A DNA stretch of 64,000 bases from Dehalococcoidia bacterium (lineage in GTDB: Bacteria; Chloroflexota; Dehalococcoidia; SZUA-161; SpSt-899): contig JBLYPS010000001.1 of the NCBI GenBank assembly GCA_048539495.1, positions 82,038-146,037 of the forward strand, written 5' to 3'. Numbering within the stretch: position 1 is the stretch's first letter; each line of letters starts with the position of its first letter. Shown here in pieces: positions 4,928 to 60,043 of the stretch. The notes beneath the pieces are model-generated. The model had not been told where the DNA came from and searched no databases. It saw only the letters and a list, made by a program, of their open reading frames with translations. A program made the position numbers and the translations under genes.

Positions 4928-6019
4928 CTAAAATACCGCCACCTTTTTCTGTCGCAGGAGATAGAGAAAGAACGGCGCCCCTAAGAAGGCGGTTATCACC
5001 CCCACCGGTATCTCAGTGGGCGCCAGCACCGTTCGTGCCGCAGTGTCAGCCAGGATTAAGAAACTGGCCCCGGCAAGGGTAGTGAGTGGCAGCAGAAAGC
5101 GATGGTCAGGGCCCCAGATGAGGCGCACCGCGTGGGGGATGATGATGCCCACAAATCCGATAGTTCCCACAAAGCTGACTGCGGCGGCAGTGATCAGCGT
5201 CGCCGCCACCAGCAAAATCAGCTTGACCCGCTCGACATTAATTCCCAGTTGCTGTGCCTGCTCCTCATCGAGCTGCATCACATTTAGCGGTCGGGCATGA
5301 AGCCAGATGACCACCACCCCGATGATACAGGGTGCAGCAATCACCCATACTTGCTCCCAGTTGCTCAAGGAGAATCGGCCCATAAGCCAGGCGATTATGC
5401 CGTGCAATCTATCTCCGGAAATGATCATCAGGTAGGCGGTAATTGAGGCTAAAAAGGCACCCAGAGCCACACCGGCCAGGATAAGGGTGGTCACGGGTAG
5501 GGTTTTGCCCACCCTGGCGATGGAATAGACGGCGGTTACCGCCAGCAGGCCGCCGGAAAAGGCCAGCACCGGAATGAGGCCAGCCACCGACCAGGGTAGA
5601 AGGAATCCAACCACCGCGCCCAGGGCTGCCCCCTGGGCTACCCCGATGAGATAGGGATCTGCCAGGGGGTTACGAAACAGTCCCTGATAGGTAGCCCCGG
5701 CCACGGCCAGCGCAGCACCGACCAGGCCTGCCAGCAGCACCCGGGGCAGGCGAATATCAACGACAATTGTCTCCACCGCTGCTGACCAGGCGGGGGTGAT
5801 ATCTACAAAGGGCAGCCGGGAAAGCAACACCCCCCATATAGTGCCAATGGGAATGTGGGTGCTTCCCACCGCTGAAGCTACAACCATTACCACTCCCAGG
5901 AGCAGGGCCAGCCCGGCGATACTGTACAGGCGGCTTCGCCAGCGCAGCGAATAGGCTGCGGCGGCTTTCGGCAGTGGCATGGTCGTAGCCTTGGGCGGGT
6001 TGAATAATATCATCGTCAT
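4928..6019 (-). CDS. ABC transporter permease, FecCD/BtuC family
   Basis: 363 aa polytopic membrane protein with FecCD-type organisation. Translationally coupled with neighbours (4-bp overlaps). Confidence 0.85.
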   Translation of the reverse strand: MTMILFNPPKATTMPLPKAAAAYSLRWRSRLYSIAGLALLLGVVMVVASAVGSTHIPIGTIWGVLLSRLPFVDITPAWSAAVETIVVDIRLPRVLLAGLVGAALAVAGATYQGLFRNPLADPYLIGVAQGAALGAVVGFLLPWSVAGLIPVLAFSGGLLAVTAVYSIARVGKTLPVTTLILAGVALGAFLASITAYLMIISGDRLHGIIAWLMGRFSLSNWEQVWVIAAPCIIGVVVIWLHARPLNVMQLDEEQAQQLGINVERVKLILLVAATLITAAAVSFVGTIGFVGIIIPHAVRLIWGPDHRFLLPLTTLAGASFLILADTAARTVLAPTEIPVGVITAFLGAPFFLYLLRQKKVAVF

Positions 6020-6939
6020 TCCGGGAAAAGTTCGGGCTGCAGAAGCCTTGCCAACTGCTCCAGGGCATCAACCAGCCTTGGTCCGGGGCGGCTGAATGGG
6101 TCATCCTCAACCAGGTATATCCTGTTTTCCCTAAACGCAGCGGTGACCCCTAATATTGGCACATCCCTTACCCCGGCAGCGCCGTGAGTGGCAATAATTA
6201 CCTGGGGATCTCGGGCGATGACCGTTTCCAGATCAATCATCGCCCAGGCGACGAGGTCATGAGCGATGTTTTTCCCTCCAGCTTTGATGATCAGGTCATC
6301 AGCGAAGGTTCCTGAGCCAGCGACCCACAGCGGGTCATGCCAGACTACGTATAGAACCCCTGGTCTTTGCTCATCAGTCAGAGGCCGTGTTCTGGCAGTT
6401 ATTGCATCAATCCTTTCCTTCAACGTGGTAACCAGCCGGATGGCCTCCTCGCCCTTGCCGGTGATTTCCCCGACTGAGGCAATGTTAGCGAGTACCCTAC
6501 CCAGAGTCTTTGGCGCCAGGACGAAGACGGTTATGCCGACCTCTTCCAGAGCGGCGATTCCTTTCGGGTAGTGGGCGCCTTTGGCCAGTACCAGGTCTGG
6601 CTCAAGGGCGACCACCCTCTCCAGGTCGAAGGGGAGCCAGCCACCTACCTTTTCTATATCCAGAGCCGCTTCTGGGTAATTGCAGAACGTGGTCACCCCG
6701 ACTACCCGGTCTCCAAGACCTAAGGCGAAGAGGATTTCGGTATTGCTCGGGGCAACCGAAACGATCCTCTGCGGCTCTTTTTCAAGGGTTACTGTTCTTC
6801 CCAGGTCGTCAACGAAGGTGCGGGGCACCGGTACCACAGGCTCGATCGGTCTGGGGCAGGCGCCCACCAGGGCAAGCGTCAGGATGAGGGTCAGAGCGAT
6901 CAGGATTCTTATCCAGTGTCGGTGTCGAGTAGAAGCCAT
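6016..6939 (-). CDS. periplasmic/substrate-binding lipoprotein of BtuF/FhuD class (putative corrinoid binding)
   Basis: N-terminal signal with lipobox-like LALVGAC. Class III SBP architecture. First gene downstream of the cobalamin riboswitch. Confidence 0.8.
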   Translation of the reverse strand: MASTRHRHWIRILIALTLILTLALVGACPRPIEPVVPVPRTFVDDLGRTVTLEKEPQRIVSVAPSNTEILFALGLGDRVVGVTTFCNYPEAALDIEKVGGWLPFDLERVVALEPDLVLAKGAHYPKGIAALEEVGITVFVLAPKTLGRVLANIASVGEITGKGEEAIRLVTTLKERIDAITARTRPLTDEQRPGVLYVVWHDPLWVAGSGTFADDLIIKAGGKNIAHDLVAWAMIDLETVIARDPQVIIATHGAAGVRDVPILGVTAAFRENRIYLVEDDPFSRPGPRLVDALEQLARLLQPELFPE

Positions 6940-42840: not shown

Positions 42841-45800
42841 ATGGTGGGCAGTCGTTTCAGAGATTATGACGGTAGCCTTATCCCCCCTGCGGGCTCAGGC
42901 ATTCAATCCAGGACCGCTCGGGGAAAAACAAGTGCCGCCCCTCGTGAGGAAGCGAAGGAGTGCTTTCGGGCGATCATACGAGAGCCCTTAGTCCAGGCTG
43001 CAAGGATTGCGGAAGCCGACATCGTGGTGGGGATTCCCTTCTATAACGAAGCCGATACTATCCCGGCGGTGTTGAGGACGGTAAGCAAGGGACTGGAAGA
43101 ATTCTATCCGGATCAAAAATGTGTCATTGTGGCAGTCGGTGCTCCGGCAGGCGGCGAAGCCCTCAGGGTGATAAATGCCCTCCCCTCCCGGGTAAGCCGG
43201 ATAGCTTTCTTGCTCAGCGATGAACGCGTGAGTGGGAAGGGATGGAGCATGCGAGCCATTTTCGAGGTAGCCCGGAGCCTTGGCGCCGACCTGGCCATCG
43301 TGGAAGCCGACTTAGGCAGTCGCCACGAAGGTGCGGAAATTGAGGGGTTGGCCCCCGACTGGATCCGGCTCCTCCTTGAACCCATCAGGAGTAAGGAGAT
43401 GGATCTGGTCATCTCCCGATTTCGTCGCCATTACCTTGAATCGCCGATCGCCAGTCTTCTATTCTATCCCCTCCTTACCGCCATCTATAGTTGCCCTATT
43501 CACGACCTTACCGGGGGCCAGTGGGGAATCTCTCACCGCCTGCTGCGAACCTACCTGCAGGAGACTTACTATCCATGGAGTAGCGAGATTGGTGAGCATG
43601 GAATAGATAGCTGGATGGCTACCAGTGCTGTCACCAGCGGCGCCAGGATTTGCCAGGCTAACCTGGGCATAAAAATTCATCGCCCGCTGGCAGCCAAAGC
43701 AGAGTTGGTACTGCGGCAGAAAGTCAAGGTGCTGTTTGACCGGATTGTGGCTGACCAGGAGTGGTGGGGAGTTCCTGAATTGCCTCTGCTGCAGCCTCTG
43801 GCTACGTTCGGGGCTGAGAAGGCGCACCAACCCGATGCGGTGGAAGTTGACCCTCAACTTCAGAGGTTCAAGTATGAAGAAGGCTTGAATAGATTCCACT
43901 CGCTCCTTCAGAGGATTCTCCCTGACGAGGTCTATCAGCAGTTGGCTGAGTCAACTGGCCTTAGTGGGTTCTCCGCTGCCCTGTGGGCGCAAATCGTATA
44001 TCACTTTCTGCTGGCTTATGCCTTCGACAAGGAATTTGCCGGGGGGGACCTGCTGAATTCGCTCTTCGCGCTGCACAATGGTTTCACAGCCGGTTTCGCT
44101 CGCGATATGCATCTCTTGAGGGATAAATTGGAAGCCTTACTTCCCGCAGAGAGGGAGGGATTGTTATCGATGGAAGCTGAAAGGAAAACTCAAGAGGTGG
44201 TGAATGAGTTCCTCCGCCAGAAGCCAGCCTTTCTCGCCAGTTGGGAAGTGAAGGCCGAGGCCCTCAAACCGCCTGTGCCACAGATTACCTATCGGGAGTT
44301 TATTCCCGGGGTGCCACTGATAGTTCCTTCGGAATTGACCACCCCTGAAGGCAAGATAATCCATGCCAATGCTATATATGACTCTATCTTCGCTCGACAA
44401 AAAGCAGATTTTGAGCATTTCGTCTACGAACGGCTGCACTCAGAAGCCAGCCCGCTGGCGCTGGCGCAAGCGATAAAGGATTTCCTCCGCTCACTCGAGG
44501 AGGGAATCCTCCCCGGTGTTGATCTCTCGGCGGTCGAGGGAACAAGGAAAATGGTGGACTTCATATTCGATAACTTCCCGCACCAGGACGGGTTTTCCTT
44601 GATTCCGGAGATGGCTTCCTGGCTTCTGAACCAGTATCCTCCTTACACCCTGCCTACGAAGCTGGGCTACAGGGATCTTGCCGAAATGCTCCATGGACAT
44701 GACCCTCTGGATATTCTGGCTCTGGCTAGCTGGTCCGAGGAGAGGGAATATGTGGAAAGTCTGTGGAGACTGATGGGGGAAAATCTCCGCTCGGAACATT
44801 TTGCCCCTTGTGCCATAAGGGCTCTGGTGGTAAGCCATGAGAACTTCCCTTCACTGGTGGAGATGAACAATTCCTCGGCCCTCAATAAGCTCACCTCCCG
44901 GATAGTGGTGAGCAATCTTCACAAAGGCATGGGAGGGGAATTACCTAAGCTGCGTTATCTCACCACCATCGTCAAGAATATTGTGGAGGCCGAAAGGTTC
45001 GGCAGGATATGGCAACGCTGGGCCGCAGAGAGGAAGGAGTTTGACCAGAAGGTTATCAACTCAATGGAGGGTCACTGGGGACGGGAACCCCTATCGGCAC
45101 ACAACATCTTCGAGGATGGGAATCAGCGGGTGTTGGCAGAGCGGCTGAGGCAGATGGCGGGAAGGATCGCCCAGGAAGCCGATGGGGATGCGGCTCGGCT
45201 GATGTTGGCAGAGAATCTTAAGAAGATGGCCGATTCCTATCATCTGGCGATTACACTTCCTGATGGCACATTTGTCACCTGCTCCGCCTGGTCCTGGGCA
45301 AGCTATAGCTTTAAGGGCGGCAGGGCACTACCACCCCCGCTCTCAATACATGTGGAAAGGAACTGGGCCTCGCGGGAGTTTCTGGTGAAGTATTTCAAGG
45401 CCGCCGGCGGAACCGAGGAGGTGGTGGAGGAAAAGATCGTCGAGCTTATGGAGCAGGGGAGGGAGTCTGAAGACCTGGCCACGATCCTCCTCGGAACAGA
45501 GGAGGAAGCCGCGGAAGTAGTGCCAAGGAGGGTCATTGCCGCGAAGCAGCCACCTACAGGGGCTTTGACCCGGTTTGCGGGTAACCCTGTTCTTGAGCCG
45601 ATCAAGGAGCATCCGTGGGAATCAAAGTACGTGCTTAATGCCGGCGCTATAAAGCTGGATGGTAAGGTTTACCTGGTTTATCGGGCTTTCGGCGAAGACA
45701 AGACCTCCCGCCTGGGGCTGGCCATAAGCGAAGACGGGTTCAAATTCACCGAGAGGCTGGGAAAACCGATATTCGAGCCAAAGGGTAAGAGCGAGGAGAA

Positions 45801-46506
45801 AGGGTGTGAGGACCCCCGATTAACCCTCATCGGCGATCGTATTTACATGACCTATACCGCTTATGACGGCATAGTTTCCCAGATCGCTCTGGCTTCCATA
45901 GGAGTGGATGATTTCTTGAAGCACCGCTGGCGTGGCTGGAGAAGGCACGGCTTAGTTTTCCCCGGATTCACCACTAAGAATGCTATTTTATTCCCCGAAC
46001 AATTCAACGGCAAGTTTGCCATGCTTCATCGCGTCGATCCACATATATGGGTGACCTTCTCCTCACATCTGCGTTGTCCCTGGCCGAGGAAGGAACACAA
46101 GATACTGGCTGGGTCGACGTCCGGGATGATGTGGGATGGGAGAAAGATCGGCGCCGGGGCTCAGTCGATCAAGACCAAATATGGCTGGCTGCTGATCACT
46201 CACGGGGTTGATTATGCCTTCGTTTATCGACTGGGCGTAATGCTGCTTGATCTGGCCGACCCAGCAACGCTCCTCTATCGCTCACCCAATTCCATCCTGG
46301 AACCCACGGAAAGGTACGAGGTGGGAGAGGGGGGCACGTCCTGGGTACCAAATGTGGTTTTCACCTGCGGGGCGGTGCCGCGGGAAGATAATAAGGGGAT
46401 GCTCGATGCCGATGACGAGTTGCTAGTTTACTACGGTGCCTCAGACACGGTAATCAGTATTGCCACTGCCAGAATCGGCGATCTTATCCCGGAGGAGTTC
46501 CGATAA
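42841..46506 (+). CDS. large multidomain protein: N-terminal GT-A-fold glycosyltransferase-like domain, central region of unknown function, C-terminal GH130 glycoside phosphorylase domain
   Basis: N-terminus IVVGIPFYNEADTIPAVL... The C-terminal 330 aa (GNPVLEP...YRAFG...DPRL...YMTYTAYDG...YYGASD) has beta-propeller GH130 hallmarks. Confidence 0.55.
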   Translation: MVGSRFRDYDGSLIPPAGSGIQSRTARGKTSAAPREEAKECFRAIIREPLVQAARIAEADIVVGIPFYNEADTIPAVLRTVSKGLEEFYPDQKCVIVAVGAPAGGEALRVINALPSRVSRIAFLLSDERVSGKGWSMRAIFEVARSLGADLAIVEADLGSRHEGAEIEGLAPDWIRLLLEPIRSKEMDLVISRFRRHYLESPIASLLFYPLLTAIYSCPIHDLTGGQWGISHRLLRTYLQETYYPWSSEIGEHGIDSWMATSAVTSGARICQANLGIKIHRPLAAKAELVLRQKVKVLFDRIVADQEWWGVPELPLLQPLATFGAEKAHQPDAVEVDPQLQRFKYEEGLNRFHSLLQRILPDEVYQQLAESTGLSGFSAALWAQIVYHFLLAYAFDKEFAGGDLLNSLFALHNGFTAGFARDMHLLRDKLEALLPAEREGLLSMEAERKTQEVVNEFLRQKPAFLASWEVKAEALKPPVPQITYREFIPGVPLIVPSELTTPEGKIIHANAIYDSIFARQKADFEHFVYERLHSEASPLALAQAIKDFLRSLEEGILPGVDLSAVEGTRKMVDFIFDNFPHQDGFSLIPEMASWLLNQYPPYTLPTKLGYRDLAEMLHGHDPLDILALASWSEEREYVESLWRLMGENLRSEHFAPCAIRALVVSHENFPSLVEMNNSSALNKLTSRIVVSNLHKGMGGELPKLRYLTTIVKNIVEAERFGRIWQRWAAERKEFDQKVINSMEGHWGREPLSAHNIFEDGNQRVLAERLRQMAGRIAQEADGDAARLMLAENLKKMADSYHLAITLPDGTFVTCSAWSWASYSFKGGRALPPPLSIHVERNWASREFLVKYFKAAGGTEEVVEEKIVELMEQGRESEDLATILLGTEEEAAEVVPRRVIAAKQPPTGALTRFAGNPVLEPIKEHPWESKYVLNAGAIKLDGKVYLVYRAFGEDKTSRLGLAISEDGFKFTERLGKPIFEPKGKSEEKGCEDPRLTLIGDRIYMTYTAYDGIVSQIALASIGVDDFLKHRWRGWRRHGLVFPGFTTKNAILFPEQFNGKFAMLHRVDPHIWVTFSSHLRCPWPRKEHKILAGSTSGMMWDGRKIGAGAQSIKTKYGWLLITHGVDYAFVYRLGVMLLDLADPATLLYRSPNSILEPTERYEVGEGGTSWVPNVVFTCGAVPREDNKGMLDADDELLVYYGASDTVISIATARIGDLIPEEFR

Positions 46507-49358: not shown

Positions 49359-50366
49359 TTGATGAAGGTTTGCGAACTGGGCGAATTCGGCCTTATTGAG
49401 ATTCTGGCTCAAATCGCTGATGAAGCAGGGGCGGGCTGCCGATCCAGACCCGACCTGATCATCGGCATCGGGGATGATGCTGCCGCCTGGGAGGGCGAGC
49501 CTTCCGTTCAGCTTGGCACTACCGATATTCTGGTCCAGGATGTACACTTCACCCTGGAGACAACCACCTGGCGTGATCTGGGCTGGAAGGCTCTGGCGGT
49601 GAATATTAGCGACATCGCTGCCATGGGGGGATTGCCGGCCTACGCCATGATCTCGCTGGGCCTGCCCTCTGATACTGAGGTGGAAGGTATCACCCAACTC
49701 TACACCGGAATGGCAGAAATAGCACGCCAATTCGATGTGGCCATCGTGGGCGGCGACATCTCCGAAGCGCCATTGCTCATTATCAGCCCCAGTGTTATCG
49801 GCCGGGTAGAGAAGGACAAAATGTTGATCCGCTCGGGAGCGGTGCCGGGCGACCAGATAGCAGTTACCGGTTATCTGGGATCGTCGGCGGGCGGACTGAG
49901 AGTGATGAAACAGAAGCCTGAATTGGATCCCATCATAGCTTCGGCTCTAAGCGAAGCGCATCTGCGGCCCTGGCCCAGGGTGGCTGAGGGGCAGCTACTG
50001 GGCGAAAACGGGGTGAAGGCGGCAATAGACATCAGCGATGGCCTGATTGCCGATCTCACTCATATTTGTCGGGCAAGCGGGGTCGAGGCCAGAGTCCGCT
50101 TGCCGGATATCCCGATACACCCGGCGGTCAAGGCCGCCTTCGGCGAGGATGCGATTACCCTGGCCCTTTCGGGAGGAGAGGACTACGAGCTGCTGTTCAC
50201 TGCTCCAGGTGGGGTAATGGAAAAGGTGAAACAAAGCCTTTCAATCCCGGTGACGGTCATTGGGGAGATCACCGGTGGCAAACCGGGGAAGGTGACCCTT
50301 CTTGATGAAACCGGTCGGGAGGTCGAATGGAAGAAGAGGGGATGGGAACACTTTGGGAATTATTAG
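49359..50366 (+). CDS. thiL: thiamine-monophosphate kinase (AIR-synthase-related fold)
   Basis: EFGLIEIL, GIGDDAAAW, DILVQDVHF and LGWKALAVNISDIAAMGGLP follow the ThiL pattern. It lacks the SelD N-terminal Cys/Sec motif. Confidence 0.75.
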   Translation: MMKVCELGEFGLIEILAQIADEAGAGCRSRPDLIIGIGDDAAAWEGEPSVQLGTTDILVQDVHFTLETTTWRDLGWKALAVNISDIAAMGGLPAYAMISLGLPSDTEVEGITQLYTGMAEIARQFDVAIVGGDISEAPLLIISPSVIGRVEKDKMLIRSGAVPGDQIAVTGYLGSSAGGLRVMKQKPELDPIIASALSEAHLRPWPRVAEGQLLGENGVKAAIDISDGLIADLTHICRASGVEARVRLPDIPIHPAVKAAFGEDAITLALSGGEDYELLFTAPGGVMEKVKQSLSIPVTVIGEITGGKPGKVTLLDETGREVEWKKRGWEHFGNY

Positions 50367-50638
50367 ATGTCTTCTATGATTCCTCCGACATATCTTAGCG
50401 TCCTCCGCAAGACATATACCCGGCTGGATGATGGTGGCGTGAGTTGGGTGGTTACGGGCAGGCTTGGTTTTGCATTACAGGGTGTGCCTTGGGATGATGC
50501 GGTGGAGACGATCTCGAGGATGCAATCCGCATGTGGATATGCGCTTCTCTTGTATGGATAGTAACGACTTCGCTGCTATCCGCAGGTTGAATTTCTGGAA
50601 GCAGAATAATAGAGTGGTACACTGGGGATGAGGTCATA

Positions 50639-51640
50639 ATGCGAGTGATAGCCAAACTGGAAGTCCCGATAACTGGGCCTCAGATCCGCCGCTTGCAGGC
50701 GTTAGGGGCAAGCTTGATCTTTTGTTCTGCGCATGCAGGGATCATTGGGCTTGATATGGAAGATAGTTCATCGCTGAAGCGGTTGGATTTTATTCTCGAA
50801 TGGCGACCGAGCCAGAAAGGACAGGTGCTTCTCCACCCAGCGTTGCAAGCTGTCGGCGTTTCGGCGTTATATGAACAGGGTCTGAGCGGAGATGGTATCT
50901 GGATTTCGGTGATAGACAGTGGTATTATCACCAGCGACCCTAGCTTGGGGCGTGCAGTGGTTGCACAGATGGATTTCACAGGCGAAGGGGTTTACGACTA
51001 CGCCTTGCATGGAACGCTTGTAGCGAAGATCATGAACAGCATTGTGGCTAACGCTTCCTTACTGAACGCGAAGGCCGTAGATCGATATGGCGATGTGGAT
51101 GAGATAGCGGTATTTCAGGCGCTTGAGTGGTCTCTGGACAACGATGCAGACATCGCTAATCTTTCGCTGGGTTTTCAGCGGGAGTGTCATGGGAATTGCT
51201 GGCTCTGCCAGTTTGTAAACATGTTAGTAGAACGGGGGATGAGCGTTGTTGCTGCCGGCGGGAATTGGGGACCCTCTGACGGTACAATCTCTTGCCCAGG
51301 GAGCGCTGTCCAAGCCGTGACGGTTGGGGCAACGGAAGCTGGAGCGGTCGCTCCCTACAGCAGCCGTGGGCGACCTCAGCAGGTGAAACCTGATCTTGTC
51401 GCCCCAGGAACTCTAGAGATTGGGAGATTCCGTTTCACCGGAACTTCTATTTCGACGCCGATAGTCGGTGGAATCCTGGCATCCCTTTTTGGGGAGTACG
51501 ACCGGAAAAAGGTTTTGGGTTGCTTGAGCAAGGGTTGTGTTGACTTAGGTTCTGCCCGCAATCAGCAGGGGTATGGTCAGATAGATGCTGACAAAATTTT
51601 GGAGGTGCTTCAACGTGGCAAGAATACTGGTCAAGACTAA
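50639..51640 (+). CDS. subtilisin-like serine peptidase (S8 family), no obvious signal peptide
   Basis: Catalytic triad motifs VIDSGI (Asp), HGTLVAKI (His) and GTSISTPIVGG (Ser). The N-terminal 90 aa look propeptide-like. Confidence 0.75.
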   Translation: MRVIAKLEVPITGPQIRRLQALGASLIFCSAHAGIIGLDMEDSSSLKRLDFILEWRPSQKGQVLLHPALQAVGVSALYEQGLSGDGIWISVIDSGIITSDPSLGRAVVAQMDFTGEGVYDYALHGTLVAKIMNSIVANASLLNAKAVDRYGDVDEIAVFQALEWSLDNDADIANLSLGFQRECHGNCWLCQFVNMLVERGMSVVAAGGNWGPSDGTISCPGSAVQAVTVGATEAGAVAPYSSRGRPQQVKPDLVAPGTLEIGRFRFTGTSISTPIVGGILASLFGEYDRKKVLGCLSKGCVDLGSARNQQGYGQIDADKILEVLQRGKNTGQD

Positions 51641-51812
51641 AGACCCGAAGGAGGTCGAAGAACTGCGGCAGCATGGCAAAATCGTTTTCCTCTCCTCGTT
51701 GGTGGATATTATCGGTGTGGAGACGACAGAGGCAGAAGTAGAAAAAATCAAAGAGCTTGTCGGTGAACAACGGGTGAGACATAGCGCCCGAGGAACGATA
51801 CAAAAAGTTTGA
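51585..51812 (+). CDS. hypothetical small protein, possibly peptidase-inhibitor-I9/propeptide-like
   Basis: ...RILVKTKDPKEVEELRQHGKIVFLSSLVDIIGVETTEAEVEKIKEL..V resembles the I9 pattern. Overlaps the S8 gene 3' end. Start uncertain (GTG near 51615 possible). Confidence 0.3.
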   Translation: MLTKFWRCFNVARILVKTKDPKEVEELRQHGKIVFLSSLVDIIGVETTEAEVEKIKELVGEQRVRHSARGTIQKV

Positions 51813-51982
51813 TGAATGACAGTGGTATGGCTCGGCGCGGCGCCTAACACAGGGTTTGCGGCTTCGCCCAACTTGTTACGCAAGTTCGCAAACCCGCAAA
51901 TATCAGAGTGTGTGAAAAGCCCCAGGCGGAATCTCTCTGGCAGCTACTGTAGACAGTTGCGAGCATCGAAGGCTGAAAAGCT

Positions 51983-54900
51983 ATGACTAAGAAAGAGATA
52001 GATGTCATCAGAAGAACCGTTTCCATCCTGGATTCGGTGGATTACCACCGCTACTCGGAAGGGAAGGTCGAGACCTATCTGGAATATGCTGCGGGAGACT
52101 GGACTGACGAGAGGAAACTGATTGCTCCGATTCTCTTCCCTAAGTTCCTGGAGCAAATCCTCAGGTTTAGGCTGGGGGAAACCATTGGAACCCAGGAGGC
52201 AAGTGCTGATGGGCGGGATATACCGGACTATATCCCTATTGATACCCGCACCCATCCGTTTGTATTTGACTGCAAAGGGATGGACACCTTTGACCTCTCT
52301 AAGTGGTATAGCCAGATAAAACGATACATAGAGGCACAAGACCTGACATACGGGATCCTGGTTAATATGCGGGACCTCGATGTATACACCGTTGAATCCG
52401 AGGAGGATCTGGAATCCTTCAACTTCGTAGAGCTTTACAAGGATTTTAAGGAAAATCCGGCAAGCATCCTTGTGAAGGAGAATACAAAGCGATTCCTCCG
52501 ATTTGTGGAACATTTCAGCTACACCCCACTGATGATGGAGGGGAAATTCAAGAAGGTTGTAGTAGCAAAACCCTGGACCGGGGCAGAGACCCTCAACATT
52601 GACCTGCTAACCAGGCATCTGCACTATATTGTCGAGTGTATTTATGAAGATGCTGGGCGAAGGAGGGAAGAACTCTCCTCATTAGCAGAAGTGGACCCAG
52701 AAAGAGCAAAAGCCATTGCCCAGGAGATAGAGATAATTGCCTCAGAAATTGAGCGGGGAAGGAAAATAGAAGAGGCATCTCTGGAAGCCTTTGGGGAGAT
52801 TCTGAATGCCTCTCCCCAGAGCCTTTGGGGAAGAGCTTTGAATATCTTCTTCTATCGGGTGGGATATTTCACCATGACCAGGCTCCTTTTAGCCCGAACC
52901 TGGGAGGACATCGGCTTTATTGACCAGAGCCTATACGATGGAGGGCTTGCCACACTGTATGAGAATTTCAACCGACAAATTGGCAGGGTTTTGAAATATG
53001 CCTTTGGCCTCGCCGCGGAACGTTATAAATGGCTTTTTAATGTGGACAATAACTACACCTGGTATGAGCCTTCAGATGAAACCCTTATAGAAGTGCTTTA
53101 CGAACTCTCAAATTTTTATCTGGGAAAGCTTGACCGTGATGTCCTGGGCACGATCTATGAAGAGTACATTGACAAAGTGGATAAGAAGCAAAAAGGGCAG
53201 TATTATACCCCAAGAGAGATAGTTGAGTTTATCTGGGATAGAGTAGGATTCGTTAAGGATGAAGACTTCTTCTATTACAAAGAAGGTAAACGTCAGCCGA
53301 GGCCCATCTTTGACCCGGTGACGGGTTCCGGCGGTTTTCTCGTGGAAGCTGCCAGACGCATCAGAGGGGACACTAAGCTAAACTACGCTGATTTCAATGA
53401 CCTTCTGGACATCAGAACCGCCATGCTCACCGGAATCTTTGGCAGCGAAATCTCCCCGTTTCCTTACTATATTACCGAGGTGAATCTTTTGATCCAGCTT
53501 ACCCCGGTTATCAAAGGGATGATGGATATGCAGAGGAACTTCAGGGGGAAAGGAACCCCAGCCCTGGGGGTCGTCCCCAGCGATGCCCTTTCCCTCTACA
53601 ACCCGGCGCAGCTTACCCTGGAGAGAGAAGAGTATGATTTCGACCAGACAAGAGATCTCTTACCCCTGGAAAGCCAGAAAAAGGTGGTTTTTCACAAGAT
53701 AAAGAGGAGCCTTGATGGGAAATTCTCCTACTGTTGTGCCAATCCTCCTTACGTTGGAGAAAAGGGAAACAAAGAACTCTTCAGGGCAACTCTGGAGCGA
53801 TTCTCCTATTGGCGAGAATTCTATCAGGGGAAGATGGATTATCTTTACTTTTTCATCATCCTGGGGCTTTCGAAACTTGAGGAGGGCGGCAAGCTTGGAT
53901 TCATAACCACCGCCTACTGGCCTACGGCAGACGGCGCATCTGTATTGCGCAAATACATCCTGAAAAACGCCAGGATAAAGGAGATGATATTCTTCGAGGA
54001 TGTGAAGATATTTGAATATGCCCGGGGTCAGCATAATATGGTCTTTATTCTGGAGAAATGTTCTAGCGAACAGGAACGGGCGGAGAACAGGATAAAGATA
54101 GTTCAGGTTTTAGCCAAACACCCGGAAATTCCAGGGAATACAATTAGAGAAAAACTAAAGTTCTTGACTGAGCATATCCAAAAGCGTGCTAACGAGATAG
54201 AATGGGGGGATGAATATATCAGGGTGTTCTGGAGTGGGGTGAAGCAAGGGGAGTTGACTGGAAAGACATGGAATTTGCTGCGAGGTGGTGAAGCCGATAG
54301 AATCCTGGAGAAGATACAGCAAACAGGAGTTCCCCTCAGTGACGTCTGCAACATAAACCAGGGGCTTGTCTCTGGTGCTCCCAAGGTTAGCGAAAGCAAC
54401 ATCAGGCTTCTGCCCCAGGATGTTATCTTACACTACAACATCAAGGTTGGGGATGGCATCTTTGTTCTCTCTCGAGAAGAGCTGGAATCCTTGCGGCTCA
54501 GCGAGAATGAGATGGCTCTGATAAAACCATATCATAAGAGCACTGACATTCATAAATACTATACGGAGGAATATCACCAATTTGTCATTTACATCACTAA
54601 GGATACCAATATTGATAAGTGCCCTAGAATCAAGGCACATCTGGAGAAGTTCCGACCAATCTTGGAAAACAAAAGAGAATTTAAGGAGGGAAAGCTTCCT
54701 TGGTTCAGCCTCCATTGGGCCAGAGACCAAAAAATCTTTGAGGGGGAGAAGATAGTTACCCCCAACTTTGCACGCCAGAACAGCTTTGTTTATACATGCA
54801 AGTCATTTTATACAGAGTTTGACAGCTACTTTATAACTAGCAAAGATACTACCCTAGAATTCTTGAAATACATAACTGCAATTCTGAATTCGAAGGTAGC

Positions 54901-55591
54901 CGATTTCTGGTGCTCCTATAATACGAAGAGGAAGGGGGAGAAGGGGTTAGTTAGAGAATACAATACTGGTTCTATGTCTCAAATCCCCATCCGCCGCATA
55001 AACCTTGACCACCCGGAAGAGGTCAAAATTCACGACCACCTGGTAGAGTTAGTTAGCAATATTATCGAGATGAAGAAGAGTCTCGCCAGCTATAATCGCC
55101 TTTTCCCCAAGGCACGCTTAACTCGCCTTCAGGATAGCGACCCCCTGCCAGAAATAAGTGACGAGGAGATAGTCAAAGCTTTTGACTCTTCAAGTCTCCG
55201 TATTATTCGCACCCATCCACAGGTTAAATACCAACCAGAGAATCCTCAGCATTTCTTTATGAAAAGCATAAAAGAAGCCGAAGATGGTCAAAGCCTCACC
55301 ATCACCTCCAAGGATAAGCAAAAGATAACCTTAACCGCCCGTGAAGCTCTATTGGCATATCTCCAAAGAATATTGCCGAACTATATAGGTAGAGAATGGG
55401 GGCAAATAATCAACCAAGTCCTTATTCCTACACAGCCAGATTTATTTGATAAGCGGCGAGAGGAAATCCTGTCTGAAGCAACCAACCTTCGCCAAAAAAT
55501 TAAAGCCCTTCAGCAGGAAATTGACACCATCGTCTTCAACCTCTATGAATTGAACGAAGAGGAGCAGAAGGTTATTATGGGAGTGGTGTAA
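51983..55591 (+). CDS. Type IIG/IIL-like restriction-modification fusion enzyme: N-terminal PD-(D/E)XK nuclease, gamma-class N6-adenine MTase, C-terminal target-recognition region
   Basis: [19 protein letters not shown] (PD...DxK), [13 protein letters not shown] (motif X), [14 protein letters not shown] (motif I), [11 protein letters not shown] (motif IV NPPY) and a C-terminal TaqI_C-like [21 protein letters not shown]. 1202 aa. Confidence 0.7.
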
Positions 55592-55592
55592 A

Positions 55593-55901
55593 ATGGATTT
55601 AGTTTACTGGTTACAAGTTATCGTCCCGTTATTCGCATTATTCTTTGTTGTCCTTAGCTTTTATTGGATGCATTGGAGGAAAGGTCATTTAGTAGTCAGT
55701 TCCCCTCGCTCACTTATGGTAGCTAAAACACAAGACAGATTGATTGTTGAATTACCGTTAAGCTTCAATAATACAGGTGCTGCCCCCATCATTATTGATA
55801 ATCTATTACTAAGGTTGCAGCAACAAAATGCTAAAGCGCTACTTTTCTTTAATGCCACACGCAGTAAGCTAGGGGATGAAAAACAAGAGTGGGCAACATA
55901 G
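55593..55901 (+). CDS. hypothetical small membrane protein
   Basis: N-terminal TM helix [17 protein letters not shown]. Start 2 bp after the R-M gene stop. AT-rich. Confidence 0.35.
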
Positions 55902-55928
55902 ATTGCAATAGACGGACGGAAATCGGTC

Positions 55929-56147
55929 ATGAATATTTATAGTTTTCAAGCTAAAGGCAAAGAGTTTGGCTTCGATATAGGAACGTGGGACTGCTGCTTG
56001 CTGGGCAAGCTTGACGGTAAAACGAAATATAAAGAACTTTTGAAATTCAAACTGAATGTTAGTTATTTGACTGAATGCCTAACAGTATATGACAACTACG
56101 ATGATGAGTATAAAAACATGATTGCGAAGGATTTAAGTGAAAAATAA
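55929..56147 (+). CDS. hypothetical small protein (72 aa)
   Basis: ORF only. AT-rich island context. Confidence 0.3.
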
Positions 56148-56222
56148 AATCGGCATTACTACCACAGTTCCTATAGAAATACTAATCACTGTTGGTTATA
56201 AGCCGATTGAATAGCAGGTAAT

Positions 56223-56531
56223 ATGGGAAACAACGCTACAAGCGAACTAAAGAAGCGAGTGATGGCAGATGATGCGCTGTACCAGCGGTATGGCAAAAAG
56301 CTGGAGCAAGAGCACAAGGGGGAGTTTGTGGCTATTAGCCGAGACGGGGCAGTTATCATTTCAAAAAGCGATATAGAGGTACTGCAAAAGGCGCTGGAGG
56401 AGTTTGAAGCCCAAAAGCAGAGGGTCTTAGAGGTAGTCTTAACCCTTAGATGGGAAATCCAGGAACTTCAGAACTCGATTGACAGGATAGTCTTTGAACT
56501 CTACGGCGTGTCCGAAAATGAACTCGGATAA
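56223..56531 (+). CDS. hypothetical small protein with a TaqI_C-like C-terminal helix (IDRIVFELYGVSENELG)
   Basis: The C-terminal 20 aa are paralogous to the C-terminus of the 1202-aa R-M enzyme. The central region GEFVAISRDGAVIISKSDIEVLQKA is DUF5678-like. Confidence 0.4.
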   Translation: MGNNATSELKKRVMADDALYQRYGKKLEQEHKGEFVAISRDGAVIISKSDIEVLQKALEEFEAQKQRVLEVVLTLRWEIQELQNSIDRIVFELYGVSENELG

Positions 56532-57025
56532 TGCGTGACAATTTAACCATAACCACCTGCAGCCCGGAGGAAACGCAGCGGATCGGGGCCGATATCGGCA
56601 AGAGGGCCCGAGCGGGCGACTTGATTCTCCTGGTGGGGAGCTTGGGAACCGGGAAAACCTGCCTCACCCAGGGCATTGCCCGGGGATTGGGACTGCCCGA
56701 TTATACCCCAAGCCCCTCGTTCGTGCTGGTGAGAGAATATCAAGTAGGGGTACCTTGCAACGTGCCCCTACTATACCACATCGATTTCTACCGGCTCGAT
56801 GATATCCGGGAAATCGCTGAGCTCGGAATGAGTGACTACCTCGATGGTGAGGGAATCTGCGTGGTGGAATGGGCTGACAGGGCTCTGGATTCGCTCCCGG
56901 AAGAACACCTGCTTATCAAGTTCGAGCATCTGGCGGTAAATGAGCGTCGATTACGGTTCGAACCCAGGGGGCAGAGATACGTCGGTCTCGTGGAGGAACT
57001 GAAAGAAAAATGGAACTTGCGATAG
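56531..57025 (+). CDS. tsaE: tRNA t6A37 biosynthesis protein TsaE (YjeE ATPase)
   Basis: LVGSLGTGKT P-loop plus YHIDFYRL. Confidence 0.9.
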   Translation: MRDNLTITTCSPEETQRIGADIGKRARAGDLILLVGSLGTGKTCLTQGIARGLGLPDYTPSPSFVLVREYQVGVPCNVPLLYHIDFYRLDDIREIAELGMSDYLDGEGICVVEWADRALDSLPEEHLLIKFEHLAVNERRLRFEPRGQRYVGLVEELKEKWNLR

Positions 57026-57702
57026 ACACCTCAACCAGGGTTGCCAGCCTGGCGCTATCGAATAGAGGCGCTCTCATCGCAGAAATCACCTGGTATGCAG
57101 GACAGAATCATACTGTGGAGCTTATTCCCAACGTGATTTCCCTCCTCGAACAGCGCAAGGCGCATATCCACGATATCGAGAGCATCATAGTGGCCAGGGG
57201 GCCGGGCAGCTTTAACGGGCTGCGAGTGGGAATAGCCACCGCCAAGGGGTTGGCATTCGCTCTGGGCATTCACCTGGTCGGGATAAGCACATTGGAGGTG
57301 TTGGCCTTCCCGTACGCTGACGTGGGCTTTCCTGTTTGCCCCATCCTGAATGGTGGACGAGGCGAGATCGCCACCGCACTGTTTCGAAAACGGAAAGGGC
57401 ATTGGGAAAGGCTCACTGTGGAGCACACCACCACCATTAGTGATCTCTGCTCCCAGATTGGGCAGCGAACCATATTCTGCGGCGAGATCAGCAATGAGCA
57501 GCGGATGCAGCTTGAGCAGCAACTGGGGAAGAAGGCATTGATTGTAAAGGGATCAGCCACGCTCCGGAGGGCGGGCTGCCTTGCCGAACTTGGCTGGCAC
57601 AGGATGGAATCGGGTGACTTCGACGATCCCTTCACCCTCCAACCATTGTACTTGAAGAGTCCAGCGATCACCGTTCCCAAAAAGCCACTGAGAAGTGGGT
57701 AA
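57010..57702 (+). CDS. tsaB: tRNA t6A37 biosynthesis protein TsaB (YeaZ)
   Basis: MELAIDTSTRVASLAL...ARGPGSFNGLRVGIATAKG. Confidence 0.9.
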   Translation: MELAIDTSTRVASLALSNRGALIAEITWYAGQNHTVELIPNVISLLEQRKAHIHDIESIIVARGPGSFNGLRVGIATAKGLAFALGIHLVGISTLEVLAFPYADVGFPVCPILNGGRGEIATALFRKRKGHWERLTVEHTTTISDLCSQIGQRTIFCGEISNEQRMQLEQQLGKKALIVKGSATLRRAGCLAELGWHRMESGDFDDPFTLQPLYLKSPAITVPKKPLRSG

Positions 57703-58137
57703 TGGGTAATAGGTAATAGGTAATGGGGAGACTACTATATGCTACACGCTAGTTACTACATCACAAATACCACCAAATCGTTGACACTTTTGGAGACATT
57801 AAGAAGTCTCACCAAGCGTTGACACATGGACATTCGTCCCATGGGGTGCTTTAATTATACATTATCTCAGCCAGCGTTGACACCCTAGACATCTATGGGT
57901 AGAGGGTATGGGAAAGTCTCTACCAAGTGATTGCCATGTCTAATTTGGAGTATATGTGCGTCGGTGCAGATTGTTGCCTTGACATATTCATAAACAAGAT
58001 CCTTAGAAACAGTAAACTTCTCTCCAAAGATGTTTAATTCTGGATCGCTGCGGATGAACCTGAAGAAATGGACATAACCGTCTTCAATGGGTATTTTATC
58101 CCTGGACAACTGGAATGTGTTTGGCAAGATAAAAGTG

Positions 58138-58552
58138 CAGAGAATGGCGGCCAATTTGTGCGGAAGAAGCGTACGCTGGTTCCCTGCATACAGGCCTTAA
58201 CCCCCAGGGCGGTGGCCAGGTGGGTTTTCCCCGTACCCACTGCACCCAGCATCAGCACATTCTCCCGTTTCTCCAGGAAGACCAGGTCTGTCAGCGCGGT
58301 GATGCTGATCGATTCCGGGAGAGTGACCGTTTCGAAGTCAAAAGCTTCCAGAGTCTTAAGGTTGGTAAAGGCGGCCTGCTTCAGGAGCTTTTTGATGCGG
58401 TTGTGCCGGCGCATTTCAAGTTCGGCATCCAGCACCGCGGTCAGGTACTGCTCCCGGTGCTGAAAGTCGATCCGGTCATAAACCCGGAGCACACCCCCCA
58501 GCTTCAGTTTTTTGCAGTGGGCTTTAAGCAGATCCGATGCCACCGGGGCCAC
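58138..58552 (-). pseudogene. istB: IS21 helper ATPase IstB, N-terminal about 140 aa only
   Basis: ...LMLGAVGTGKTHLATALGVKACMQGTSVRFF, then loss of the Walker-B/C-terminal region. The read-through frame continues into flanking DNA. Confidence 0.65.
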
Positions 58553-60043
58553 CTCCGTTCCTGATCAATTGGTCGTAAACTCTCATGTCAGGTGCATAGT
58601 TAAGGATGCAGGCCGGAGTATAGTCATCCGATATTGTTTCTGGTATATACCGGTGGGTTTGACGGTACAGCAGATGGCGAATACCTCCGGCGTCATATTC
58701 GATGCCGTCTTTGGTGGCGGCAGCCACGGCGGTGGCGATTTGCTCAATTGTGTACTCCGACTGCAGTAGTTCGCTGACCAGTTCGATACGTTGCCGCCGT
58801 GCCGCCCCCTCCCGGTTGAGGAAAAATTCCTTCACGGCCGGGGGCAGGTGCTGAATGTAGGACGAGTACTCCAGGGCCCTTGGTTTGCGACGGTAAATAT
58901 CCAGGTGGGACACCCAGTCAATGGGGGTCTCTTTGGCACTGTAAGGGCGTCTGAGAGTGCCGAGAGGCTGCAATTCCCGATTCAGGATTTCGACCCGGTC
59001 CCAGTAGACCTTGAGGAGCACCCGTTCACCTGGCCTAGCCCGGGGGACATCATATGGACGGTCCTCAAACCGAACCCGGGTGTATTTGTCTACGGTGGCG
59101 GTAATCAGTCGAACGACCTCGAAGGGCACCCCAGGCAGGGTTAAGAACTTCGCCCGTTCCTCGGCCCACAATTCAGCAATTCCCCGGTCTTTCTCGTAGT
59201 GGGTGCGGTGCATGTCCGTTTCCGCTCTTTGGAGCAGTTCGGTGTTGAGTTGCTCCCAATCTTCGAACCGGGGCGGGGGAACAAACCAGTTACGCCGAAT
59301 GAAGCCAACTTTGTTTTCAACGTGTCCTTTTTCATTGCCGCAACCGACGTTGCAAAATGTTGCCTCAAAACGATAGTGTAGACAGAATCGCTCAAATATC
59401 TCGGTTAGTTTTCGATCACCTCCCGTAAAAACTTTGGTCACGGCCACCGATAGGTTATCCAACCAGATTTTTTTCGGGACCGCGCCAATATACTCAAAGA
59501 GACACTTCAGAGCTTCCAAGAAGCACTCTGCGTTTTCCGCCGGAACGGCATAGGGAAATCCGGCGTTGCTAAAAGGGAAGGAGAGTACCAGACATTTGAT
59601 CTCCTTGAGTTGTCCGTTCTCGACTACTTTAACGGTTTTAAAGTCAGCCTGGGCTTCCCCGCCGGGGTGCTCCAGTTTGGCATAGCGCTCTTGCTCTTGA
59701 ACCCAGAGTTCGTGTTTACGCCGGGCTACGTATTCACGCACGGTGCGTTCGCCCCCCGAAAACTCGTGCTCGCTTACCAGGCGATCATAGATCCGCCTGG
59801 CAGTATGTCGCTGCTTCTTTGGCGACAGGGAGTCCTCCAAGAGCCAGGTATCAACGATTTCTTCAAATGGACCAATTATCGGTCGTTTCTTGCATCGTTG
59901 TTGTTTCAAGGGGGCGCTCCAGTCTTGCCGGTCGGCGTACTTCTTAGCTGTGCGCCAGCGTCAACGATTTCAGCGATTTCGGCAATGCCCTTGTCTTTCT
60001 TATCCCGCAGATGTTTGATATACTGGATCTGAGCCATTGTCAG
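58524..60043 (-). pseudogene. istA: IS21 transposase IstA, N-terminal HTH separated by a frameshift
   Basis: Frame A gives MLTMAQIQYIKHLRDKKDKGIAEIAEIVDAGAQ...stop. Frame B gives ..KKYADRQDWSAPLKQQRCKKRPIIGPFEEIVDTWLLED plus the DDE core (track ORF 58524..59909). Confidence 0.7.

Follow-up and report, generated by a model that had tools for sequence, protein, structure and literature searches.

Type IIG restriction-modification (R-M) enzymes such as Eco57I and RM.BpuSI are single chains in which a helical connector joins an N-terminal PD-(D/E)xK nuclease to a gamma-class N6-adenine methyltransferase, with the recognition domain at the C-terminus. Classical members are paired with a second methyltransferase, and the related enzyme MmeI has 919 amino acids (aa) (PMC2582602). 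The nuclease motif of RM.BpuSI is PD-x15-ExK (PMC3185434). In Tk-subtilisin, subtilisin E and BPN', a propeptide fold is located ahead of the S8 catalytic domain. Defence-linked S8 proteases are represented by IetAS, which consists of the subtilase IetS and the ATPase IetA. We analysed an interval in which genes for an S8 subtilase (333 aa), a small protein (65 aa) and a Type IIG-like R-M enzyme (1202 aa) follow one another. It lies between thiL and tsaE in a stretch of 64,000 nucleotides from a Dehalococcoidia bacterium (GenBank assembly GCA_048539495.1, contig JBLYPS010000001.1, positions 82,038 to 146,037), which we call the window. Labels with L denote comparison loci, and labels with P denote homologous proteins.

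A first-pass annotation, made from the sequence alone, had grouped the subtilase, the Type IIG enzyme and the small proteins into one composite defence locus. This grouping is not supported. The interval is likely to consist of three unrelated units side by side, which are independent of each other and are swappable cassettes at one spot. The units are considered independent because R-M homologues occur without the subtilase, because the S8 segment is exchanged in L005, because only the protease and its small partner are shared between their contexts, and because the G+C content differs. The G+C content was ~0.55 in the surroundings, 0.52–0.54 in the S8 region and 0.40–0.48 in the R-M gene and the small open reading frames (ORFs).

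R-M homologues with no subtilase nearby were found in L001/L002 (68% protein identity), L003 (61%) and L005 (85%). In L001/L002 and L003, the R-M gene stands alone, with flavodoxin/amine-oxidase genes on one side and a YjeF-family gene on the other. Most can be learned from L005, which aligned to the window in blastn with 85–90% identity over four stretches (50256–50377, 51880–54762, 54983–56153 and 56394–56529). The first of these is the 3' end of thiL and is 85% identical to L005 1–122. The second, which is 90% identical to L005 1439–4346, takes in the 103 bp ahead of the R-M start and most of the R-M gene. The third holds the remainder of this gene and the gene that follows it, and the fourth the end of the last small ORF. 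The segment between the first two stretches (window 50378–51879), with a 64-aa ORF, the S8 gene and the small gene, has no counterpart in L005. Five small genes are found in this slot instead, and three of them match toxin-antitoxin families (HicA, DUF4258 and an MqsA-like antitoxin). The S8 segment is a swappable insert. The conservation of the 103-bp upstream region implies that the R-M gene travels with its own 5' control region and not as a part of the S8 unit.

The same picture emerged from the protease side. The S8 gene and the small gene were found as a pair in eight contexts: the window, L011, L012–14, L015, L016, L018, L019/20 and L021–23. The seven contexts besides the window are all without this R-M family. 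When the ORFs of the eight contexts were compared all-against-all, the pair alone was common to all of them. The complete window layout was repeated only in the same-species assemblies L006, L007 and L008/L017 (>99% identical). The two families also differ in size, with >120 full-length clusters for the R-M enzyme against ~27 clusters for the S8 protease.

In a composite defence system, the subtilase, its partner, the Type IIG enzyme and the small proteins would cooperate, and restriction could, for instance, trigger the protease as effector or regulator. We consider this highly improbable. It is true that all genes are on one strand in a block of 5.9 kb, that the layout is kept in the same-species loci L006–L008 and that the pair is again near methyltransferase-type genes in L012 and L016. 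However, the R-M homologues of L001–L005 are without the pair, L005 keeps the R-M unit and carries its toxin-antitoxin-like genes exactly in the S8 segment, and L011, L015, L018, L019 and L021 contain the pair and no R-M gene. Moreover, the methyltransferases near the pair come from three unrelated families, and the ORFs downstream of the R-M gene are a pseudogene and a relic (see below). The neighbourhood analysis thus essentially separated the two from both sides, with R-M homologues without the subtilase and pairs without this R-M family.

Some points weigh against the independence of the units. The contexts of the R-M family inspected outside the window comprise three independent ones. Scans for promoters and terminators gave the same counts as shuffled sequence. 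In three of the eight contexts (window, L012 and L016), the pair adjoins a defence gene of the DNA-methyltransferase type. There may be a looser functional tie of the pair to methylation-based defence in general.

The description of the 333-aa protein as a cytoplasmic S8 peptidase was supported. The Pfam S8 model matched with an E-value of 1.6e-25 (90.4 bits, cut-off 21.8). The catalytic triad D93/H124/S270 and the oxyanion residue N209 were invariant in 24 family members and in subtilase order. Four cysteines (C183, C187, C190 and C219; C-x3-C-x2-C...C-P-G) were also invariant in all 24 members. As the protein is predicted to be cytoplasmic, they may form a metal site and not disulfides. The family members all start with M-R-x-I at residue 1. 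In the structure model, the N-terminal domain (residues ~2–60; predicted local distance difference test (pLDDT) 78.5) has the order beta-alpha-beta-beta-alpha-beta, beginning at residue 2. With the propeptide fold starting there, a signal peptide has no place, and the protease should be intracellular unless it is exported by an unconventional route. The top Foldseek match of the domain was the Tk-propeptide 2z56_B (probability 1.00, target-normalised template modelling (TM) score 0.71, root-mean-square deviation (rmsd) 2.0 Å). Over the subtilisin propeptides as a whole, the target-normalised TM score was 0.66–0.75 and the rmsd ~2 Å. The match list also contained the prosegments of BPN' and subtilisin E (1spb_P and 1scj_B), the prodomains of furin and PC1, and POIA1 (1v5i_B).

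The small gene and the S8 gene share 26 nt. The GTG start of the small gene at 51615 is preceded by a Shine-Dalgarno sequence (GGAGG, 51601–51605, 9 nt upstream), and we consider this the true start. Over its whole length, the 65-aa family aligned to the S8 N-terminal domain with an hhalign probability of 96.8% (E 2.7e-10). A hidden Markov model of the small proteins matched nothing besides the partner ORFs and S8 family proteases, the latter at their N-termini. Pfam Inhibitor_I9 had no match at E ≤ 0.1 in either protein. By profile alignment and model, the 65-aa protein is a free-standing paralogue of the S8 propeptide and is I9-like at the level of the fold, which agrees with its earlier description as an I9-like small protein. 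The small gene is kept beside every S8-family gene. The two-gene cassette would encode a leaderless pro-subtilase and, by translational coupling, also a free copy of the I9 propeptide of this enzyme. By analogy with the subtilisin propeptides and with free I9 inhibitors such as POIA1, the free copy would most likely bind the active site of the protease in trans and keep the S8 protein latent or aid its folding.

The pair is rare. There were ~27 protease clusters in the S8 family and six representatives of the small-protein family among 1.84 billion proteins. One of the S8 homologues carries the annotation Candidatus Methanoperedens, an archaeon. Scans of genomes and metagenomes for the S8 family gave four loci only, of which one was new and distinct. 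In viral contigs, only generic subtilases were found (≤34% identity over most of the protein), and the small partner was not found. In the literature, we found nothing on the pair, and the organism appeared only in a name listing. This rare protease/propeptide pair is the mildly novel remainder of the locus.

Defence or toxin-antitoxin genes were located within a few genes of the pair in five of the eight contexts (a small sample, counted without background statistics). These are the window with its Type IIG enzyme; L012 with an SNF2 helicase, a DrmMI-like methyltransferase of 1337 aa (5.6e-81) and a Dsr1-like protein of 960 aa (2.4e-48); L015 with PIN, PHD, HicA and UPF0175 genes; L016 with a DUF1156 methyltransferase, also HmaB- and PglXI-like, directly downstream; and L018 with a PDC-S02/YhcG nuclease. 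The remaining three look ordinary, with FtsK in L011, FEN1 in L019, and surface proteins and a transposase in L021. The contexts support the view that the pair is a mobile cassette which collects in variable or defence regions, but give no support to a partnership with this R-M family.

Three of these loci had further features. L012 1–13628 is a defence island with the pair in the middle, which also contains a DUF488 protein and an integrase fragment. Its Dsr1-like protein matches the C-terminal part of the Dsr1 model only (542–1219 of 1227). In L015 (3304–5319), the pair and a UPF0175 antitoxin-like gene are located between two ORFs with similar DegT-aminotransferase-like N-termini. The first of these ORFs is a fragment of 100 aa that ends right before the S8 start, and it looks as if the cassette was inserted into or beside a duplicated gene. 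In L016 (3425–6675; Candidatus Hakubella thermalkaliphila S34), the S8 ORF comprises the last ~228 residues (match from ~103). The small partner is intact and is directly followed by the 806-aa DUF1156/N6_N4 methyltransferase.

These contexts raise the question of whether the pair works on its own in defence or in the manner of a toxin-antitoxin system. The protease would then be checked by a labile propeptide and unleashed on infection or on loss of the cassette. We regard this as doubtful. The eight contexts in divergent lineages, including the archaeal S8 homologue, the five contexts with defence or toxin-antitoxin genes, the toxin-antitoxin genes in the same slot of L005, the rarity of the family and the generic similarity to the PADLOC subtilase and IetS models are in its favour. 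On the other hand, L011, L019 and L021 resemble ordinary chromosome, the eight contexts come without background statistics, the PADLOC matches come from what S8 proteases have in common (NCBIfam IteS 25 bits, cut-off 900), and viral contigs hold no relatives with the small partner. A more specific version has the pair as an undescribed module of protease and inhibitor that is horizontally mobile and acts like a toxin-antitoxin or abortive-infection system. It would insert preferentially beside methylation-based defence, namely the Type IIG enzyme in the window, a DISARM-like locus in L012 and the DUF1156 methyltransferase in L016, and would use the paralogue as a labile antidote. This version is rather unlikely in our view. 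Under the preferred reading, the pair is one independent cassette among others in the interval.

For the R-M enzyme, Pfam matches above the cut-offs were Eco57I (1.5e-21, 77.7 bits), N6_Mtase (1.1e-20, 74.6 bits), TaqI_C (2.6e-10, residues 849–1003, 41 bits, cut-off 26.5) and MmeI_Mtase (7.7e-09, 35.5 bits, cut-off 27). In PADLOC, MTase_II models had the highest scores, and REase_MTase_IIG models matched with up to 1.2e-25. The enzyme belongs to a family of >120 clusters with lengths of 1194–1233 aa, which aligned over 98–100% of their length with 48–99% identity. The names found for this family of ~1200-aa proteins were generic methylase at most. With the 1202-aa enzyme, a populous and uncharacterised branch of the Type IIG enzymes gains a further member.

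The motifs pointed out in the first-pass annotation (PD...DCK, YTP, FxGxG, NPPY and a TaqI_C-like tail) were confirmed by Pfam and by an alignment of 118 full-length homologues. P81, D82 and K98 were invariant in all 118, and position 96 was D in 77 and E in 41, which gives a strict PD-x13-(D/E)-x-K. The methyltransferase motifs YTP (408–410), DPVTGSGGF (444–452) and NPPY (587–590) occur in the order X, I, IV, and YTP, D-x-x-G-S-G and N-P-P were invariant across the homologues. In the model of residues 1–380 (pLDDT 86.2), a long helical region comes after an alpha-beta-beta-beta-alpha-beta core. The nuclease motif is located on the consecutive strands 83–85 and 93–97 of this model. Foldseek matches to the Protein Data Bank (PDB) were weak (E 0.26–1.5), and ranks 1–3, 11, 13 and 14 were restriction-endonuclease-like (DUF820 Ava_3926, TT1808, 9y1l and 6okh). 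Sub-threshold matches to HSDR_N_2 (residues 80–142) were obtained for three of five diverse members when the N-terminal 200 residues were searched. No sequence match above the threshold was found for the N-terminal domain among Pfam or PDB nucleases. The N-terminal 380 residues were conserved to the same degree as the remaining protein. The least conserved segment was the TaqI_C-type recognition domain, which is followed by ~190 further residues. Taken together, alignment and model give the 1202-aa protein the predicted layout of a Type IIG enzyme, with nuclease, helical linker, methyltransferase and TaqI_C domain.

The family profile matched CamA (1.9e-34), BseCI (3.2e-26), RM.BsaXI (2.2e-09) and MmeI (3.5e-05) in the PDB. 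The closest solved relatives by sequence, CamA and BseCI, are one reason to ask whether the protein is a methyltransferase only, i.e. an orphan, regulatory or BREX PglX-like enzyme. The top PADLOC scores to MTase_II models, weak NCBIfam matches to BREX PglX and the statistical weakness of the nuclease fold matches point in the same direction. Nevertheless, we find this quite improbable. The PD...(D/E)xK motif was strictly conserved in 118 of 118 homologues over the range of 48–99% identity, the N-terminal 380 residues were conserved like the rest, and PADLOC returned REase_MTase_IIG. The PglX match reached 53 bits where 400 are needed, and the genes called in the flanks included none of the BREX partners (PglZ, BrxC, BrxL).

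From the domains and motifs of a Type IIG enzyme, we infer the following mode of action. The TaqI_C-type domain would read a short asymmetric DNA site, the gamma-class methyltransferase would mark the host copies of this site on adenine, and the N-terminal PD-(D/E)xK domain, held on the helical linker, would cut unmodified DNA at a distance. Among the genes from thiL to tsaB, there was no methyltransferase match besides the 1202-aa protein. As the locus lacks a companion methyltransferase, the enzyme may work in an MmeI-like way, with one-strand protection.

Relatives of the R-M enzyme on plasmids were distant only (21–34% identity, partial coverage), and viral contigs contained no relatives of the R-M N-terminal region. 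A viral origin was rejected, as viral contigs had neither the small partner nor relatives of this region. The R-M family shows a recurrent link to MNT-HEPN modules. The homologue P0059 (1311 aa) has additional Polbeta/NTP_transf_2 nucleotidyltransferase domains, and a separate nucleotidyltransferase/HEPN (MNT/HEPN) pair is located after the R-M gene in L003 (9906–10917).

Identity profiles along the R-M family pointed to recombination. P0005 and P0013 (L001, L003) were up to 98% identical in the methyltransferase domain. The identity fell to 34–44% in the recognition domain (residues ~750–1000) and then recovered to 64–86%. Judged by this profile, the two proteins differ by a clear recognition-domain swap, which would imply different specificities. 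The window enzyme has a different profile. It was 70–96% identical to its relatives at residues 1–750 and 22–34% identical at residues 1050–1200, where relatives such as P0005 and P0013 were 64–86% alike.

The missing 3' end appears to have been left nearby. The first-pass annotation had noted that a 102-aa protein further downstream repeats the C-terminal helix motif of the enzyme. This was correct and understated. Residues 43–99 of this ORF matched residues 1152–1208 of P0020 (phmmer E 7e-13), and in tblastn (3e-13 to 1e-11) the similarity spanned 56265–56528, i.e. ~90 residues for P0005 and P0007. The ORF resembles the C-termini of the family more than the C-terminus of the window enzyme itself. 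Its 5' part differs from L005 and matched Pfam DUF5678 below the cut-off (E 0.0042). The stop codon of the relic overlaps the ATG of tsaE (TAATG). In L005, a stretch straight after the 188-aa gene (5735–6121) is collinear with the C-terminal region of the family over ~128 residues. The 3' part of the 102-aa ORF is, as far as the alignments tell, a leftover of the original 3' end of the R-M gene.

Judged from the identity profiles and the relic, recombination would have swapped the last ~150 codons of the R-M gene and brought in or trapped a 184-aa gene. The original 3' end would have been stranded just before tsaE, where it would now form the C-terminal half of the 102-aa ORF. Within the relic stretch, the assemblies L006 and L008 end and L007 is interrupted by a run of N. 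Such ends and N runs are expected for a repeated segment. A seemingly broken R-M gene in L008 was an artefact of a scaffold gap of 215 N.

The first-pass annotation had also reported a membrane mini-protein that starts 2 bp after the R-M stop. The spacing was right, and the gene starts 2 nt past the stop in both the window and L005. The mini-protein is not a separate gene, however, but the N-terminal fragment of a split 184-aa gene with one N-terminal hydrophobic helix. A C-to-T change at 55899 converts CAG to TAG (55899–55901) and splits the gene. The independent assembly L007 has the same change, and L005, L006 and L008 encode an uninterrupted protein of 184–188 aa. Likewise, the small ORFs had been described as three AT-rich ORFs. 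Their low G+C content was confirmed, but two of them are one gene. We found 41 homologues of the 184-aa gene, and no family annotation was found for them. In three more distant genomes (56–74% identity), the homologue is part of a conserved housekeeping cluster with no R-M gene nearby. There it is preceded by either a metallo-beta-lactamase-fold gene or a 280-aa gene with no annotation, itself downstream of enolase (eno), and is followed by an HGD-D gene and/or GAPDH. The idea of the mini-protein as an R-M accessory was rejected, as it is a fragment of a nonsense-mutated gene with distant homologues in a housekeeping cluster. Judged from these sequences, the 184-aa gene is not an R-M accessory in general and is inactivated here.

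All ORFs named in the first-pass annotation were found at their positions in the ORF list of the window. The variable interval reaches from thiL to tsaE/tsaB, and every ORF inside is on the + strand. The features are collected in Table 1.

Table 1. Features of the variable interval and its flanks, in window coordinates
Feature	Coordinates	Strand	Evidence or remark
thiL (thiamine-monophosphate kinase), left flank	49359-50366	+	Pfam AIRS 3.2e-24, AIRS_C 8.8e-11
64-aa ORF	50367-50561	+	No family match above threshold
S8 subtilase, 333 aa	50639-51640	+	Pfam Peptidase_S8
Propeptide paralogue, 65 aa	51615-51812	+	GTG start; ORF list had 75 aa from 51585
R-M upstream region, conserved with L005	51880-51982	+	blastn
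Type IIG-like R-M enzyme, 1202 aa	51983-55591	+	Pfam, PADLOC, NCBIfam
PD-(D/E)xK motif, P81-D82...D96-C97-K98	52223-52276	+	Alignment of 118 homologues
Gamma-class N6-adenine methyltransferase core	53204-53752	+	Alignment, Pfam N6_Mtase and Eco57I
Variable target-recognition domain, TaqI_C type, residues ~750-1010	54230-55012	+	Pfam TaqI_C
Last ~150 residues of the R-M enzyme, atypical and apparently replaced	55130-55591	+	Identity profiles
184-aa gene, nonsense-split into ORFs 55593-55901 (102 aa) and 55929-56147 (72 aa)	55593-56147	+	
Chimeric ORF, 102 aa	56223-56531	+	Probable R-M C-terminus relic in 3' part; 5' part weakly DUF5678-like
tsaE and tsaB, right flank	56531-57702	+	Pfam TsaE 2.4e-35, TsaD 4.6e-24

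The genes that flank the interval are ordinary housekeeping genes, and the best database matches were metagenome-assembled genomes labelled Dehalococcoidia. The 64-aa ORF begins directly after the thiL stop and is located in the segment that is absent from L005. Its phmmer matches were limited to same-species assemblies (L006–L010 and L017). It also resembles, faintly, the N-terminus of an aminoglycoside nucleotidyltransferase (E 0.054), and the ORF may be one more fragment of a gene. We looked for repeats or att-like sites flanking the S8 cassette and found none that were convincing. There were no tRNA genes in the 40–64 kb part of the window.

An IS21-like element is located on the - strand ~0.3 kb downstream of tsaB (58034–59909). 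It encodes an IstA-like transposase of 461 aa with a weak match to the Mu-transposase C-domain, and its IstB is truncated (172 aa, model positions 30–128 of 238). Upstream of thiL, a protein of 1221 aa (42841–46506) ends in a GH130 (mannooligosaccharide phosphorylase) domain. For the long region ahead of this domain, Pfam gave no match at E ≤ 1e-4.

A tidy row of genes on one strand may, as seen here, be pieced together from cassettes, a pseudogene and a relic. The locus also illustrates the rebuilding of a gene by recombination, with the displaced terminus apparently still in place. Through recognition-domain swapping and the mosaic 3' end, the R-M family could supply new specificities. The protease/propeptide pair would add a new effector logic if it were a true addiction or defence module.

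When compared with known R-M systems, the 1202-aa enzyme shares the single-chain order of Eco57I and RM.BpuSI. Its motif is PD-x13-DxK where RM.BpuSI has a longer spacing, it is ~200 residues longer than these enzymes, and it has a region of ~190 residues past the TaqI_C domain. In contrast to classical Type IIG enzymes, no second methyltransferase gene is present at this locus. With MmeI (Type IIL, PDB 5HR4), the enzyme has the domain order in common, and it may likewise be encoded by a lone bifunctional gene, as no companion methyltransferase matched between thiL and tsaB. The first-pass annotation had rightly called it larger than MmeI-type enzymes, and the difference to MmeI is 283 residues. 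Homology to MmeI was found in the methyltransferase core only and not over the nuclease, helical and recognition domains. The profile match (E 3.5e-05) was confined to profile positions 367–505, and no other MmeI domain families were among the Pfam matches at E ≤ 0.1. The recognition-domain swapping in close R-M relatives is similar to the way in which specificities diversify in the MmeI family. The closest solved relatives of the methyltransferase and TaqI_C module are CamA of C. difficile (7LNI) and M.BseCI (7QW5). Both are methyltransferases of ~580 aa without nuclease or linker, and they cover profile positions ~580–1010 only. Membership of the 1202-aa protein in BREX, DISARM or MADS was rejected, as the scores were far under the cut-offs (BREX_2_MTaseX as given above for PglX; BREX_1 37 bits, cut-off 500) and the flanks had no partner genes.

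On the protease side, the link to IetAS is a loose one. PADLOC IetS models matched with up to 4.7e-09, and these matches were partial and generic. IetS has ~750–830 aa, and the partner here is a propeptide paralogue of 65 aa rather than an ATPase. No ATPase family had a match in the genes adjoining the S8 pair in the window, which places the pair outside IetAS. The closer comparison is with Tk-subtilisin, subtilisin E and BPN', with which the S8 protein shares the propeptide fold ahead of the catalytic domain. Unlike these pro-subtilisins, it has no signal peptide, and its catalytic domain carries four invariant cysteines. A further difference is the second copy of the propeptide in an overlapping downstream gene, paired with the protease in all eight contexts. 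For a free I9-fold protein that works in trans, POIA1 is the precedent.

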